The notes under the pieces are model-generated. The model was not told where the DNA came from. It ran no database searches and worked only from the letters and a program-made list of their open reading frames with translations. Below are positions 9,265 through 64,000 of a DNA stretch of 64,000 nucleotides, piece by piece. The position numbers and the translations under genes are program-made. Within the stretch, counting starts at the first letter, position 1. The number at the start of each line of letters is the position of its first letter. Source of the stretch: Planctomycetota bacterium (GTDB lineage Bacteria > Planctomycetota > PLA2 > JAEUHO01); NCBI GenBank assembly GCA_028281445.1, contig JANQJW010000014.1:30026-94025 (forward strand), in the 5' to 3' direction.

Positions 9265-10182
9265 CTAGGCAGGCTGCGCGGCCTCCGCCTCGGCGTCCGC
9301 CGCCGCTTCGAAGCGCTCGCGGATGGCGAGCGTCAGAGGCCCCGGGGCGCCGCTGCCGACCGCCTGCCCGTCGATCGACACGACCGGGAGAATGCCACGT
9401 ACCGACGACGAGAGGAACACCTCGTCCGCCGCCCGCAGTGCCTCGGGGAGCAGCGTGGCCTCCGCCGCGGGAATGCCCGCCTCTTCACACAGCGCGAGGA
9501 TCCGCGTGCGCGTCGTGCCCTTGAGGATGCCCGCGTCGGTGGGCGGCGTCGTGAGCGCGCCGTCCTTGATGGCGTAGACGTTTGCCGTCGTCGCCTCGGT
9601 CACCTGACCGCGTGCGTTGAGCATGATGGCGTCGTCGGCGCCCGCGAGCTTGGCCTCGTGCAACGCGAGCACGTTGTTGAGGTAGTTGCCTGTCTTGGCC
9701 GCGGGGTCCAGCGCCTTCGCCGACAGCCGCAGACGATCGACGAGGGCGGCCCGGAGACCACGCTGCACATCCTCGTCCGACGGGCGGTTCGCGGGAGCGG
9801 CGACGACCACCACGGACTGTCGCGGCGTCTTGGCGAAGTCCAGACCGAGCGGTCCGGCGCCGCGCGTCACGACGAGGCGCACGTACGCGTCGTCGTCCGG
9901 TCCCCCACCGGCCGCGCGGACCGTCGTCTGGATCGCTTCGACGATCTCCTCGCGGGACGCCTGGATCTCCATGTAGAGCCGCCGGGCGGACGCTTCCAGC
10001 CGATCGAGGTGCTCGCGCTCCTGGATGAGCGCGCCCTTGTGCCACCAGAAGACCTCGTACACGGAGTCGCCGAACAGGAAGCCGCGATCGAGCGCGGGGA
10101 CTACCGCCTCCTCGCTGGTCGTTATCCGTCCGTCGACGTTGATGCGTATATCCACGCCGTGATGGTACTTCGCGGTACGCAT
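9265..10182 (-). CDS. Class IV aminotransferase (branched-chain amino acid aminotransferase or aminodeoxychorismate lyase family).
   Basis: DRGFLFGDSVYEV, EATTANVYAIKDG, and GILKGTTR (the GILpGiTR motif) are fold type IV PLP enzyme signatures. Confidence 0.75.
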   Translation of the reverse strand: MRTAKYHHGVDIRINVDGRITTSEEAVVPALDRGFLFGDSVYEVFWWHKGALIQEREHLDRLEASARRLYMEIQASREEIVEAIQTTVRAAGGGPDDDAYVRLVVTRGAGPLGLDFAKTPRQSVVVVAAPANRPSDEDVQRGLRAALVDRLRLSAKALDPAAKTGNYLNNVLALHEAKLAGADDAIMLNARGQVTEATTANVYAIKDGALTTPPTDAGILKGTTRTRILALCEEAGIPAAEATLLPEALRAADEVFLSSSVRGILPVVSIDGQAVGSGAPGPLTLAIRERFEAAADAEAEAAQPA

Positions 10183-10246
10183 GGCGACCCAACGCACGAC
10201 AGGGGCGGATGTTGCGGGAGGATGGGTTCGCACGGACGATGAGCCG

Positions 10247-10795
10247 GTGAGCGAAGATCCGCACACGTTCGAAGGCACCTGCCTGCCGTTTCTGCCGGAC
10301 TGCTACGCCTTCGCGCTGTCGCTCACGCGCAAGAGCCACGAGGCCGAGGACCTCGTGCAGGACACCTTCCTGAAGGCCCAGCGCGCGTTCGCATCGTTCC
10401 AGCAGGGCACCAACGCCAAGGCCTGGTTGTTCACGATCCTGCGCCGACTGCACATCGACATGTACCGGCGCGGACGCCTGCGCCCCACGGCGTTGCCCGA
10501 CGACGAGCTGACCGAGATGGCGCCGCCCAAGGAGGACGACGGCGAGGCGCCGATCGACCTGCCCTGGGACGACCTGCCGCCCGGGGCCGTCGAGCGTGCG
10601 GTGGATGCGGTCCCGGACCCCTTCCGGCTGCCCGTGCGCCTGCGGGACCTCGACGGGCTGTCCTACCGGGAGATCGGCGAGATCCTGGCCATTCCGTCCG
10701 GAACGGTCATGAGCCGCCTGCACCGGGGCCGGGAATACGTGCGCAGGGCCCTCGTTGAGCAGGTGGAAGGAGCCCGGTCGGACGCCGCCGAATGA
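10247..10795 (+). CDS. ECF (RpoE-like) sigma-70 family sigma factor. The start is uncertain: GTG 10247 or ATG 10181.
   Basis: Region 2 (LVQDTFLKAQRAFASF...AWLFTILRRLHID) and region 4 (LSYREIGEILAIPSGTVMSRLHRGR) are both present. The stop overlaps the anti-sigma start (ATGA). Confidence 0.75.
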   Translation: MSEDPHTFEGTCLPFLPDCYAFALSLTRKSHEAEDLVQDTFLKAQRAFASFQQGTNAKAWLFTILRRLHIDMYRRGRLRPTALPDDELTEMAPPKEDDGEAPIDLPWDDLPPGAVERAVDAVPDPFRLPVRLRDLDGLSYREIGEILAIPSGTVMSRLHRGREYVRRALVEQVEGARSDAAE

Positions 10796-11601
10796 CTCGA
10801 GAACTCCACTGGTCCCAGGACGCCGTCGAGCTGGACCGAACGCTCGAGGGCGAGCTGCCGCTCGACGAGCTCGCGGTGCGCCGCGCCGAGATCGCAGCGG
10901 AAGCCGACGTGCGCGTGCGCTGCGAGCAGCGCGAGGAGTTCCTCTCGACGTTGCGCTTCGCGGGCGAGGCGTGGCGCCACGAGCTGCCGTCGCGAGTGCC
11001 GCAGGGCCTCGAGGCGCGCGTGCGCCAGGCGCTGCTGACCGCGCCGAATCCGCGCTACGGCCTGCGCTGGGCGACCGCCGCGGCGGCCGCGCTCGTGATC
11101 GCCCTCGGTGCGTCGCTGTTCCTGACCCCGAGCGGGGGCGATGCGGTCGCCATGCCGCCCGAGGTCGTGAAGGCTGCGGAAGCCGCACGCAGCAGCGCCG
11201 ACGGCCCGCGCACGTGCAGCGACGAAGGCAGCACGAGCCCGAAGCACTTCCCGCCGGTGCGTGACGGCGCGCTGCGGATCTGGCGTTGCGTCGGAGACCG
11301 GCAGGGCACGGTCGCAAAGCTCTATCGCCCCGAGGACTTGCCGTCGATCGGCTACGCGGCCGTTGCGGAGTACGGCGCAGGACACGGGCCGGACATCGGC
11401 ATGACGGACCTCGGCGACATGATCGTCTTCGACGTAGCGTACGGGAACCAGCGTCACTACCTCGCCGTGAGCAAGGAGTGGTACGAGCAGCAGGAGCGCC
11501 GAACTCCGGATCGCGCGAGTTGCACGGCGTGCCACAACCGCTCGAAGGACGGCAGGCCCAACCCGCACAACATCGTGAAGCGATCGTGGGAGCTGCGGTA
11601 G
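10792..11601 (+). CDS. Putative anti-sigma factor, single-pass, with a Cys-containing periplasmic domain.
   Basis: Translationally coupled to the ECF sigma gene. A cytoplasmic N-terminal domain is followed by the TM helix WATAAAAALVIALGASLFL and a ~170-aa periplasmic domain with four Cys (TCSDEG, RCVGD, CTACH). Confidence 0.55.
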   Translation: MTRELHWSQDAVELDRTLEGELPLDELAVRRAEIAAEADVRVRCEQREEFLSTLRFAGEAWRHELPSRVPQGLEARVRQALLTAPNPRYGLRWATAAAAALVIALGASLFLTPSGGDAVAMPPEVVKAAEAARSSADGPRTCSDEGSTSPKHFPPVRDGALRIWRCVGDRQGTVAKLYRPEDLPSIGYAAVAEYGAGHGPDIGMTDLGDMIVFDVAYGNQRHYLAVSKEWYEQQERRTPDRASCTACHNRSKDGRPNPHNIVKRSWELR

Positions 11602-12992: not shown

Positions 12993-15287
12993 TTACTTGG
13001 GCTGCGAGGCCGTCTTGACGGGGACGTCGTTCAGGACGAGATCCAGCCGCTTCTTGAGCTCCTCGACGCCCTTCTCCTTGCCGAACCACTCGCCGACGTC
13101 CGCCTTTCGGCGGATGCGGCCTTGCTTGTCGATGATCGTGATGTAGGGCTGAGCGACGGGAATCCCCAGCGCATCACGGATGGGCATGCGCTTGCCATTC
13201 GTTACGTCGATCTTGATGCGGGCGACCTTTTCGAACCTGGAACGTAGCTCCGGAACTCCGGAGATGAGCTTTTCATACTCCTTGCAGTAGTGTCACCACA
13301 CGGCCCATACGTCGACGACGGCGGGCTTCCCTTCTGCGTTCGCGGCCTTCACAAGCTCAACGAGATGGTCGCGATCCTCGACCTTGGTCCACTCGAGCAA
13401 GTTGTCCGGAGGCTTGGTCAAGAAACCGACCAGGGGGACGACGGCGAACAACATGGCCGCCACCTGCAGTCCGCGAATCCGGGCGGGACGCGGCAGTTCG
13501 CCCTCCTTCTTCTGGAGGTGCCAGGCAACGCCGACAGCGCCCAGGAGCGCGATGGCGCCGCCCATGACGTAGAGCGTCTGCTGGCTAATGAGGCCACCGG
13601 ATCCGAGGTAGTAGAGCGCGGCGCCGACGAGGATGGCGCCAAACGTGTAGCGAACCCAGACCATCCACGGTCCCGGCCGTAGCGCGAAGTTCAGCGAACC
13701 GGCGGCGAAGAAGACCGCGCCCATGCCGAGCCCCAGGGCGAAGAACTCGAAGAAGCCCTGGACGACGTTGCCGCTCTTGGCTGTCGCGATCAGCAGGCCC
13801 GCGATGGCTGGTCCCGTGCAGGGACTGGCGATGATGGCGCCCAGACATCCGAAGAGGAACGCCCCGATGAACGAGCCAGAACGCTTCTGCGCCCCCCCCT
13901 GCAGGTTCATCAGCCAGGCCGGCGGCTGCAGCTCGTAGATGCCCAGCATCATGAAGCCCAGCACGATGAACAAGATCGCGATGGCCCACTGGACGCCGGC
14001 GCTCTCAAAGGCGGCGCTCATGCTGCCGCCGGCCAACGCGGCGACTACGCCGAGCGTGGCAAAGGTCAGTGCAAGGCCCGCCACATAGGTGAGCAGCAAC
14101 CGCGCCAAGCGGCCTTTGGGGATGTCGGCGTTGCCGCCGCTGATCACGCTGACCGTGATCGGGATGATCGGCAGCACGCAGGGCGTGAACGCCAAGCCCA
14201 TGCCGATCAAGAAGAGCAACAGGAGACTCCCACCGGCCACGTTCTTCTTCTTGCCGACCGCGCCCAGGTCATCGTCATCGACGACCGGGAAGAGCACTTC
14301 GCCCTTGGGTCGCTCCTGCTCAGCGGGCTCCGGGTCCGTGGCCGGCGCGACACCGCCCCCCGCCCACGTCGCCCGGAGGATGATGTCCTGCTCAGGAGTC
14401 AGGCACGTTCCCACGTCGTCGCAGGCGCCGTAGGAGACCTTGACCTCGAGCTGTGTGGCGCTGGTATCGCGCTCGAACTTGATGAGGACGCTATACGGAT
14501 CCGTGATGGTGCCGTCGGCATCGGGAATCTCGGGGAAGCGCGGCTTACCCCACTTCACACCTTCTGCTTTTACGGGCTCGACGCTGATGGGGAAGCCCTT
14601 CTTGCTGCCCGGCGGATAGAAGTGCCAGCCGAAGCCCGGCGTAAAGGTGACGGCAACCAGGCCCTTCTCCTCGTCCACGCGCATCCTGACGCCGCCACCC
14701 TGGCTGTCGGGCACGTTCTTGATCTTGGGCCCGGCGTCGGCCGCCACGTTCGGCGGGACCGGCGCGCCGTTCTTCTTGCCGCCCGCACCGGGCGCGACAC
14801 CGCCTGCGGCGGCTCCGCCAACGACGGCGACAGCCTGGTGATCCTTGACCGGGGGATAGCAGCCGCGGTCGTTGCAGCCGAAGTAGGTGAACGTCATGCC
14901 GACCTTGGTGCCCGGCTTGACGTCCTTGGAGAGTGTCACCTTCGTGTTGACGGTGAAGGTCCCCTCCCACACGTCGAACTCATCATCCATCGGGTCTTTC
15001 CAGACGTGATGCTTGCTGATCTCCGGCTTGCCGTACGTCACGCCGTCGGCCTCGATCGGGCCGTACTTCATGGCCTGATCGCCGGTGGCGTAGATGTGGA
15101 GCTTCGGAAGCAGCGTCGCCTCGATGACGAGCATGCCGCTCTGGCCGGGCTTCAGGTCGGCGGGATCGAGGCGGGCCTCGATGTCGATGCGGCCGGTGAC
15201 GGGATCGCCCGCCCAAGCCGGGCTGGCGGCGACGAGGAACAGGACGGCGACGAGGAGCGCCGGACGGGCGCGCGCGCGGCTTCTCAT
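12993..15287 (-). CDS. dsbD: Thiol:disulfide interchange protein DsbD with an in-frame TGA (13293..13295) at the first position of the thioredoxin CXXC. Candidate selenoprotein (U-H-Y-C), otherwise a pseudogene.
   Basis: Signal peptide, a duplicated DsbD alpha-like periplasmic domain (two GCNDRGCY/GACDDVGTC-type motifs), and a TM core with CVLPIIP...ASPCTGP. The C-terminal thioredoxin domain is AVVDVWAVW-TGA-HYCKEYEK.... The ORF track splits the gene at the TGA, but the 64-aa downstream ORF (12993..13187) is in the same frame and is the rest of the thioredoxin fold (cis-Pro region GIPVAQPYITIID). Confidence 0.7.
13248..13263 (-). promoter_or_regulatory. Candidate SECIS-like hairpin downstream of the in-frame UGA of dsbD.
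   Basis: mRNA CUCCGG-AGUU-CCGGAG: a perfect 6-bp stem with a G/U-containing 4-nt loop, 33-48 nt after the U of UGA, with possible extension by flanking pairs. Confidence 0.35.
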
Positions 15288-15513
15288 GGGGGGACTCCGA
15301 ATGCGCAGCCGGGCGGAAAGCCGGGCAGCCGGATCTGGATTCTATGACAGCCGCGGGCCGGCGGCCTGCACGCCATCAGCGACGGGTGAAGTCAGGGACC
15401 TGTTTCACCCTACAAATCGGGCCCAAACGGTCACGAGATGACCTCTGCCCACGCCGCGAGCGCCCGGGCCCCCTCTGCGCCCTCTGCCCTCCTCCGCGTA
15501 CTCTGCGTTTCCC

Positions 15514-61090: not shown

Positions 61091-62698
<1,608 letters not shown>

Positions 62699-62752
62699 GA
62701 TGGCTCCGATGTCGTCGTTGCTACTACTTCAGGCAGTTACAGGTTGGGACCA

Positions 62753-63043
62753 CTACTTCGTGATGAGCGCGAGGACCTCGCCCTCGCGGAGGATCTTGTA
62801 GTCCTCGCCGTTCCAGTTGATCTCGTTGCCGGCGTACTTGCCGAACAGGATCTCGTCGCCGACGTTGACGCTCATGCCGAGCCGCTCGCCTTCGTCGTTG
62901 CGCGCGCCTTCGCCGATGGCGACGACGACCGCGCGCTGGGGCTTTTCCTTCGCGCTGTCGGGCAGGAGGATCCCGCCGGCCGACTTCTCTTCCGCTTCGA
63001 TCTGCTTGACGACGATGCGGTCGTCCAGGGGGCGAATCGCCAT
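62753..63043 (-). CDS. groES: Co-chaperonin GroES.
   Basis: 96 aa with a GroES mobile loop and core (RPLDDRIVVK...AGGILLPDSAKEKPQ). Confidence 0.95.
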   Translation of the reverse strand: MAIRPLDDRIVVKQIEAEEKSAGGILLPDSAKEKPQRAVVVAIGEGARNDEGERLGMSVNVGDEILFGKYAGNEINWNGEDYKILREGEVLALITK

Positions 63044-63093
63044 GTCTCTACTCCTCGTCTTCGCTCTTCTGCGTTGCTCTGTTGATTACTCGA

Positions 63094-64000
63094 CTAGAAG
63101 TCCTCGTCCATGCCCGGTGCGGCCTCGCCTTCCTCCTCGGGGAGGTCGGCGATCAGCGTGTCGGTGGACATGAGCAGGGCCGCCACGCTGGCGGCGTTCT
63201 GCAGCGCGCTGCGCGAGACCTTCGTCGGGTCGACGATGCCGGCGTCGAACATGTCGGTCTCCTTGCCCGTGTGGGCGTCGAAGCCGACGGTCTGCTTGGC
63301 CTTGCGCACGTTGCGCAGCACGACGTGCCCCTCGTAGCCCGCGTTGTCGGCGATGGTGCGCAGCGGCACCTGCAGCGAGTCGAGCACGACCTGGACGCCC
63401 AGCGCTTCGTCGCCTTCCGTCTCGTCGAGCAGCTTCTTGACGGCCTTCTCAGCGCGGACGAACGCGGTGCCGCCGCCGGCGAGGATGCCCTCCTCGACCG
63501 CCGCGCGGGTGGCGTGGAGCGCGTCCTCGACGCGCGCCTTCTTCTCCTTCATCTCGGTCTCGGTGGCTGCGCCGACCTCGATCTGGGCCACGCCGCCGGC
63601 GAGCTTGGCGAGGCGCTCCTGAAGCTTCTCGCGGTCGTAGTCCGAGTCGGTGTTCTCCGTCTCGCGCCGGATCTGCATGAGGCGCGCGGACAGCGCGGAG
63701 GCCTGGCCGACCCCGTCGACGATGACCGTGCTGTCGCCGTCGACCGTCACGCGGCGGCAGGAGCCGAGATCGTCGAGCGTGACCTGCTCCAGGTCCGCGC
63801 CGACATCGGGGAACATGGCCTTCGCACCCGTCAGGATCGCGATGTCCTCGAGCATGGCCTTGCGGCGGTCGCCGTAGCCAGGCGCCTTGACAGCGACCGT
63901 CTGCACGACGCCGCGCAGGCGGTTGAGCACGAGCGTCGCGAGCGCGTCGCCTTCGACGTCCTCGGCGATGATCAGGAGCGAGCGACCCGTCTTGCTGATC
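63094..64000 (-). CDS. groEL: Second GroEL paralogue, C-terminal ~300 aa only. The 5' end lies beyond the window.
   Basis: GroEL apical/equatorial C-terminal sequence ([23 protein letters not shown]...[10 protein letters not shown]). Ends ...GMDEDF. Only 50 bp separate it from groES downstream. Confidence 0.9.

Follow-up and report, generated by a model that had tools for sequence, protein, structure and literature searches.

Introduction

The replacement of cysteine (Cys) by selenocysteine (Sec) in thioredoxin folds is already well known. A UxxC "thiol:disulfide interchange protein" selenoprotein family, PF13098, has been catalogued since 2004 (PMC13188914; PMC1794560). A second described selenoprotein, TsoB, has two Sec residues, which lie in a UxxxxU motif and not in a thioredoxin CXXC (PMC13188914, table), and through it selenoproteins are known to occur among DsbD-like electron transporters. 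The selenoprotein catalogue has no entry with Sec in the CXXC of a DsbD gamma domain (PMC13188914), and no description of such a protein was found in the literature and the NCBIfam families which we searched. Some Planctomycetes have the complete Sec machinery and several selenoproteins, and others are without it (PMC4807772). DsbD itself is a membrane protein through which the cell envelope receives reducing power. Here we describe a DsbD-like gene in a 64,000-nucleotide (nt) stretch of contig JANQJW010000014.1 from a Planctomycetota bacterium (the whole stretch is hereafter called the window), in which an in-frame TGA occupies the position of the first Cys of the gamma-domain CXXC. We conclude that this codon, number 665 of the gene, is probably decoded as Sec, which would make the product a Sec-containing DsbD. 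An initial annotation of the window had proposed this gene as a candidate and had stated that thiol:disulfide interchange selenoproteins are known in some deltaproteobacteria; UxxC proteins of this kind are indeed catalogued there (PMC1794560).

Results

A DsbD-like gene with a stop at a catalytic codon

The gene lies on the minus strand at 15287..12993 and on translation comprises 764 sense codons, one internal stop and a terminal TAA. It is covered by two open reading frames (ORFs) in the same frame, both on the minus strand: one of 664 amino acids (aa) at 13293..15287 and one of 64 aa at 12993..13187. Translation across the stop reads ..VVDVWAVW*HYCKEYEKL.., and after the TGA 99 further codons lead to the usual C-terminus of the family (..VPVKTASQPK). 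All that the initial annotation had stated about the sequence itself holds, namely the ORFs, their frame, the coordinates of the TGA and the position of a hairpin downstream of it. The database entry for this DsbD-like protein is the truncated 664-aa product, and it is a singleton.

We compared the C-terminal 142 residues with solved structures, and in the gamma domains of E. coli DsbD (E = 5e-8) the residue opposite the TGA is the first Cys of DWCVACK. The best matches were 1UC7, 2FWE, 1VRS and 4IP1, with DVWAVW-[TGA]-HYCKEYEK aligned to DLYADW-C-VACKEFEK. Because of this alignment to the gamma-domain CXXC, the TGA stands for Cys461 of E. coli DsbD, which, from the literature on 1VRS, we take to be the exposed nucleophilic Cys of that motif. 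The claim that the TGA replaces the first, nucleophilic Cys of the gamma CXXC is therefore borne out by the E. coli cDsbD structures. The strongest argument for Sec is this positional one: the stop falls on the single codon at which Cys is regularly exchanged for Sec, and by our own rough estimate the chance of a random nonsense mutation falling on codon 665 is about 1 in a few hundred. When all TGA codons of the 64-kb window were scanned, a coding-type composition both before and after the codon was seen at the TGA at 13295..13293 alone, and none of the other in-frame TGA candidates had a coding signature on each side.

The assignment of the gene to DsbD was also upheld, as Pfam and structure matches describe an alpha-alpha-beta-gamma protein of the DsbD type. 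Pfam returned, in order, two DsbD_N stretches, DsbD_TM and weak thioredoxin-family matches straddling the TGA. The features of the gene are as follows:

12993..15287, minus strand: complete DsbD-like gene read through the TGA, with the TAA at 12995..12993 (ORF list, translation, Pfam)
about 15287..15210, minus strand: signal peptide
14835..15149, minus strand: first DsbD_N (alpha) domain (PF11412, best stretch aa 47-151, E = 1.1e-12)
14879..14859, minus strand: Cys138/Cys143 of the first alpha domain, in GCNDRGC (motif positions)
14388..14693, minus strand: second alpha-like domain, with approximate, inferred limits (second Pfam DsbD_N stretch)
14426..14403, minus strand: Cys289/Cys295 of the second alpha-like domain, in ACDDVGTC (motif positions)
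13605..14225, minus strand: DsbD_TM (beta) domain (PF02683, E = 7e-45)
14186..14169, minus strand: catalytic TPCVLP motif of the beta domain, intact (motif positions)
13826..13809, minus strand: catalytic SPCTGP motif of the beta domain, intact (motif positions)
13038..13436, minus strand: gamma (thioredoxin-like) domain spanning the TGA (best PDB matches E. coli cDsbD)
13293..13295, minus strand: in-frame TGA, codon 665, candidate Sec codon; first position of U-H-Y-C, with C as the next base (UGA-C context)
13284..13286, minus strand: TGC, codon 668, resolving Cys of the UxxC motif (translation)
13151..13134, minus strand: cis-Pro motif QPYITI of the gamma domain (motif positions)

All of the other redox Cys are present, including the two alpha pairs and the TPC and SPC motifs of the membrane domain. 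The thioredoxin-like domain itself is also present, and for its CXXC to be complete the UGA must be read as Sec (or Cys). The protein scored below the cut-off of the NCBIfam DsbD subfamily NF001419 (265.5 bits vs 330), and it is a member of a divergent Planctomycetota clade with the same DsbD architecture. Two tandem DsbD_N-like alpha domains, with CxxxxC and CxxxxxC pairs, are found in this Planctomycetota clade (14388..15149, minus strand, in the window; homologues P0002-P0064).

No frame-breaking lesion was found in the 99 codons after the TGA. For the part of the gamma domain downstream of the TGA, the ratio of its identity to that of the membrane domain was 0.653, where the family averages 0.645 (the gene ranks 24th of 53), and in the membrane domain none of the 91 family-conserved columns deviates. 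Judged from these alignments, the downstream domain appears to be as conserved as the family predicts. It should be noted that the nearest relative is only 57% identical, and conservation tests are therefore blind to a recent loss of constraint.

A candidate SECIS element downstream of the TGA

The hairpin CUCCGGAGUUCCGGAG is found at nt 33-48 counted from the U of the UGA, which corresponds to 13263..13248:

13248..13263, minus strand: candidate core of a selenocysteine insertion sequence (SECIS), with a 6-bp stem CUCCGG/CCGGAG and an AGUU loop (enumerated hairpin, -9.4 kcal/mol, loop 35 nt after the UGA)

The consensus for bacterial SECIS (bSECIS) elements has a loop of 3-9 nt, a stem of 4-16 bp, a spacing of 16-37 nt between UGA and loop and an energy of ≤ -7.5 kcal/mol, and its loop has a G within its two opening positions, usually followed by G or U (PMC13188914, Fig. 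2). With a loop of 4 nt, a stem of 6 bp, a spacing of 35 nt and an energy of -9.4 kcal/mol, the hairpin lies within every one of these limits. The initial annotation had called it compatible with a SECIS; it fits the published consensus (PMC13188914), and our controls make a chance occurrence unlikely.

Under a strict loop rule, equal or better hairpins followed 2.2% of 17,912 in-frame codons in the genes of the window, and under a looser rule they followed 9% of 473 Cys/Trp codons. As a positive set we used UxxC genes from JGI metagenomes, selected with the DNA pattern GAY NTN TGG GSN NNN TGG TGA NNN NNN TGY AAR; the motif D.W[AG].W-TGA-xx-TGY-AAR was found there in at least 120 loci (L018-L137), nearly all of them thioredoxin-fold ORFs which read through the TGA. 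Among the matches listed, a perfect-stem hairpin of ≤ -9.4 kcal/mol was present in 24.7% of 89 non-redundant genes, which against the 2.2% of the controls gives a likelihood ratio of ~11 for this feature. The loops of the positive set include GGUC, GUC, GUU and AGUU, and they start 15-43 nt after the UGA (~93% at 16-34 nt); the metagenomic locus L020 has an AGUU loop at 34 nt, and many other loops lie at 29-31 nt. These metagenomic loci (L018-L137) also form a convenient positive set for bacterial SECIS models.

A qualifying hairpin was absent from all 18 Cys-encoding homologues for which DNA was available, the best of them reaching -6.4 kcal/mol. When the same 23 residues were recoded synonymously with the codon usage of the genome, -9.4 kcal/mol was reached in 1.0% of 5,000 trials and -7.5 kcal/mol in 18%. 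The peptide therefore predisposes to a hairpin, and the real codons nearly maximise it.

The codons around the hairpin are also unusual in their GC content at third positions (GC3):

13188..13292, minus strand: 35 codons after the TGA with a depressed GC3 of 0.743 (2.8th percentile of 35-codon windows)

Rare codons in this segment are TAT, GAA, GGA, GTT, CTA, CGT, AGG, GTA and AAT, and the hairpin loop itself contains GGA and GTT, which account for 5.9% of Gly and 5.2% of Val codons, respectively. GC3 returns to 0.89 in the last 64 codons, so that the dip is confined to the hairpin region. Such a dip is not general in the 18 Cys homologues, 16 of which are at or above the mean of their own gene; those below it are L014 (0.83 vs 0.91) and, marginally, L138 (0.906 vs 0.912). 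Among the 19 homologous sequences, the gene in the window is alone in having a hairpin compatible with the consensus and rare codons that cluster locally. Overall, the RNA evidence favours Sec moderately and is not conclusive.

Relatives of the gene

The relatives are all from Planctomycetota metagenome-assembled genomes and form a Planctomycetota-specific clade. Their codon at the site of the TGA is TGC or TGT, and the usual peptide is W-C-H/T-Y-C-K. Two Cys-encoding orthologues, L139 (Planctomycetota JAEUHO01) and L140, have about 51-54% identity and are syntenic with the window; the collinearity was measured over about 17 kb for L140 and judged from the gene list for L139. Because of this collinearity we regard them as true orthologous loci. 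The common order is TetR, PTPS, DsbD, LarA-like, anti-sigma, ECF sigma, aminotransferase IV, permease and HEAT protein. Around the site the orthologues read TGC CAC TAC TGC AAG GAG TAC GAC AAG CTC ATC, and the gene in the window reads TGA CAC TAC TGC AAG GAG TAT GAA AAG CTC ATC. The initial annotation had held that close relatives with Cys and without the downstream structure would speak against Sec. All of the homologues found have Cys and are without the structure, but none of them is a close relative.

Discussion

Alternative explanations

The alternative which survives best is a recent nonsense mutation from TGC to TGA, leaving a young pseudogene or a truncated alpha-alpha-beta protein without a working gamma domain, with the hairpin and the rare codons as coincidences. 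We consider this unlikely. A single base change would be enough for it, and several observations which weigh against Sec count in its favour. The strongest of these are that the gene is a singleton, that no Sec machinery was found in the 64-kb window, that the fold of the hairpin depends on its context and that there are two possible hints of decay.

With regard to the first, Cys is found at the position of the TGA in ~72 proteins inspected, in 15 GTDB loci and, at the DNA level, in the three closest loci. No second TGA or Sec form was found among 153 database relatives, the 15 GTDB loci and the three closest relatives, and the gene is thus a singleton among about 90 Cys-encoding homologues. 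The DsbD membrane domain was also absent from all 120 UxxC loci among the JGI metagenome matches listed.

The machinery was searched for across the 64-kb window. Pfam scans of ~49 ORFs gave no SelA, SelB or SelD, and neither ARAGORN nor Rfam gave a tRNA-Sec in this stretch. What these scans did identify are housekeeping genes, namely a complex I operon, Lon, Der, GroES/EL, DnaJ, GrpE and an Opp-type transporter. We infer that Sec is inserted, that the genome encodes selABCD and that the redox behaviour changes as set out below.

The hairpin had been described as perfect, which it is in sequence (6 bp, a tetraloop, -9.4 kcal/mol), but its fold is not dominant in a wider context. There it is not the minimum-energy fold, being beaten by two alternative small hairpins, and its pair probability stays at ≤ 0.45 (≤ 0.14 for the outer four pairs) once the folded context exceeds about 45 nt. 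Only on omission of the first 15 nt (the UGA plus 12) does it become dominant (0.95-0.99), and this omitted part is roughly the footprint of a ribosome paused on the UGA. A test based on the minimum free energy, passed by 60-67% of positives and 7-8% of controls, was failed by this hairpin at offsets 0 and 9 and passed at offset 12. The 86-nt fold has a z-score of -1.0, and the spacing of the hairpin is at the far end of the permitted range. Rfam gave no SECIS or other relevant RNA in the window at gathering thresholds or in 13150..13350 at permissive ones, an uninformative result; Rfam is without a general bacterial SECIS model. The tendency of the peptide to form hairpins, with 18% of recodings reaching -7.5 kcal/mol, also counts towards a nonsense mutation, as set against the 2.2% background of the consensus hairpin, the 1% of synonymous recodings that equal it and its presence in 0/18 homologues.

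In the part downstream of the TGA, 2 of 11 family-conserved columns deviate, V717T and F718I, both after the cis-Pro. The sequence of residues 713-718 (13134..13151, minus strand) is PYITII, as compared with PY(M)VF(I) in 90-94% of relatives. In thioredoxin folds the residues right after the cis-Pro flank the active site. The two substitutions could reflect relaxed constraint or co-adaptation to Sec, and as other members of the family deviate at up to 3/11 columns they are within its range and serve as a mild warning. Furthermore, both syntenic orthologues have a gene for a 642-646-aa cytochrome c with seven CXXCH motifs (L139:2621-4561, L140:7877-9805), which lies head-to-head with DsbD, between DsbD and PTPS. 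This heptahaem cytochrome c gene had no tblastn match in the 64 kb, and in its place there is only a 226-bp gap at 15288..15513. Either this client-like neighbour was lost or it was never gained; its absence is compatible with decay of a functional module. A decaying gene would leave unexplained why the stop sits precisely on the codon expected for Sec and why the drop in GC3 is confined to the region of the hairpin instead of extending across the whole downstream part, and the 99 codons with normal conservation contain no second lesion. We therefore still favour decoding of the UGA as Sec.

Read-through of a leaky UGA-C by a near-cognate tRNA (Trp or Cys), independent of any SECIS, would give little full-length and mostly truncated product, and we consider it very improbable. 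In E. coli, termination at a UGA with C as the next base is weak, and the downstream frame is intact. Trp at the catalytic position would, however, be inactive, nothing found by ARAGORN in the 64-kb window suggests suppressor tRNAs, and the hairpin and the synonymous-site signal would be left unexplained.

We give slightly less credence still to a sequencing or assembly error, or a minority strain allele, with TGC/TGT as the true codon. The source is a metagenome-derived contig, and the TGA had been singled out for rechecking. The Logan assembly of SRR20820735 is identical over 593 aligned bases around the site, TGA included, an agreement at the level of assemblies which may derive from the same reads as the source. 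As two assemblies have the same TGA, an assembler error is unlikely; an error or a minor allele would also have to strike exactly the base of codon 665 by chance, and the gene-specific hairpin and codon usage would remain unexplained.

Finally, reassignment of UGA (genetic codes 4 or 25) is excluded because TGA is an ordinary stop which terminates ~40% of credible genes in the window, and a separate gamma fragment from the 64-aa ORF is excluded too, its first ATG being 36 codons past the TGA and its product being without the active site.

Proposed function and significance

If the UGA is decoded as Sec, the product would be a full-length, functional transmembrane disulfide reductase of the DsbD type, in which a pair of periplasmic alpha domains is combined with a membrane-embedded beta domain and a gamma domain whose active site is U-H-Y-C. 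In the mechanism that we propose by analogy with the biochemistry of E. coli DsbD, electrons would pass from cytoplasmic thioredoxin to the beta-domain pair Cys370/Cys490, from there to a selenylsulfide of Sec665 and Cys668 in the gamma domain, and then through the Cys pairs of the alpha domains to periplasmic clients. Sec665 would take the place of E. coli Cys461 as the exposed nucleophile which attacks the alpha-domain disulfide, and a selenolate at this position should make thiol-disulfide exchange faster and give the gamma couple a lower potential. For decoding, SelB would bind the hairpin at 13263..13248, the AGUU loop of which starts 35 nt after the UGA; this hairpin would be the favoured fold when the ~12 nt next to the UGA on its downstream side are covered by the ribosome.

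We also lean, with less assurance, towards the view that this is the first DsbD-type membrane transporter with Sec as the gamma nucleophile, and that it arose very recently in one JAEUHO01-like lineage of the Planctomycetota, through a single TGC-to-TGA change together with a minimal SECIS of 16 nt. Under such a recent origin, the SECIS would have been built from a hairpin-prone peptide, and the gene would represent a Cys-to-Sec conversion near its origin.

Were this confirmed, a polytopic membrane reductase would join the bacterial selenoproteome, and there would be a natural test of the effect of a selenolate on the electron relay of DsbD (beta to gamma to alpha). It would also be a rare, young example of a SECIS emerging within a coding region, with the syntenic Cys orthologues representing the "before" state, and the 664-aa database entry would need to be re-annotated as a 764-aa selenoprotein. 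If the TGA is instead a nonsense mutation, the gene is an ordinary young pseudogene.

Neighbouring genes

An ECF sigma/anti-sigma pair is found at 10181..11601 (plus strand), behind the LarA-like gene and on the opposite strand to DsbD. The initial annotation had linked this pair to DsbD. Their adjacency is conserved, but only as part of the general collinearity of the region, and we set the functional link aside as unsupported beyond lineage-wide collinearity. The putative anti-sigma factor (10792..11601, plus strand) has 269 aa and no Pfam match and is 48% conserved in L140; there are four Cys in its predicted extracytoplasmic part, two of them in CTACH, a CXXCH motif of the type used for haem-c attachment, near the C-terminus. 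The coding sequence of the ECF sigma factor (10181..10795) contains an ARAGORN call of 97 nt at 10312..10408 (plus strand), "tRNA-Leu(gag)", which is almost certainly a false positive and is not a tRNA-Sec.

An apparent 3' part of a second groEL copy (63094..63930), matching profile positions 281-488 only, is followed immediately downstream by a groES-groEL pair (62753..63043 and 61091..62698, minus strand). The arrangement of the whole region, 61091..63930 (minus strand), is either a tandem chaperonin duplication or the result of a mis-chosen start codon.

Relation to described proteins

The "thiol:disulfide interchange protein" family, whose known members are from Syntrophus and Geobacter, resembles the protein described here in being a thioredoxin-fold oxidoreductase with Sec as the first residue of UxxC. 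This likeness is drawn from the catalogued descriptions of the family, and the match of our protein to PF13098 is below threshold (20.4 vs 27).

TsoB (NF045694), a selenoprotein resembling a rhodanese/DsbD fusion, shares DsbD-type beta and thioredoxin-like modules with our protein, which matches its model over aa 354-744 (E = 7e-61). The score is 205.9 bits vs a cut-off of 805, as only the DsbD part is matched and our protein is without the rhodanese domain.

The metagenomic UxxC proteins include TlpA/ResA-like proteins with DFWG.WUGPCK, thioredoxins with VDFWAEWUGGCK and Thioredoxin_7-like proteins with LDFWA.WU.WCK. They share with our protein the local motif D.W[AG].W-U-xx-C-K and a small hairpin, in their case with a G[G/U]-type loop mostly 17-34 nt after the UGA. 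They differ from it in being soluble or having a single anchor and in recurring in many samples, whereas the DsbD in the window is a singleton. The TlpA/ResA-like proteins have N-terminal extensions of 270-660 aa, and the Thioredoxin_7-like ones have 310-350 aa downstream.

Our protein resembles E. coli DsbD in being built of alpha, beta and gamma modules, in having TPC and SPC Cys motifs in the beta domain and in a gamma alignment, D(V/L)(W/Y)A.W-[U/C]-xx-C-KE(Y/F)EK, common to both. It differs from E. coli DsbD in having two tandem alpha-like domains where the latter has one, in being ~200 aa longer, in belonging to a Planctomycetota-specific clade and in having TGA as the codon for the first Cys of its gamma domain.

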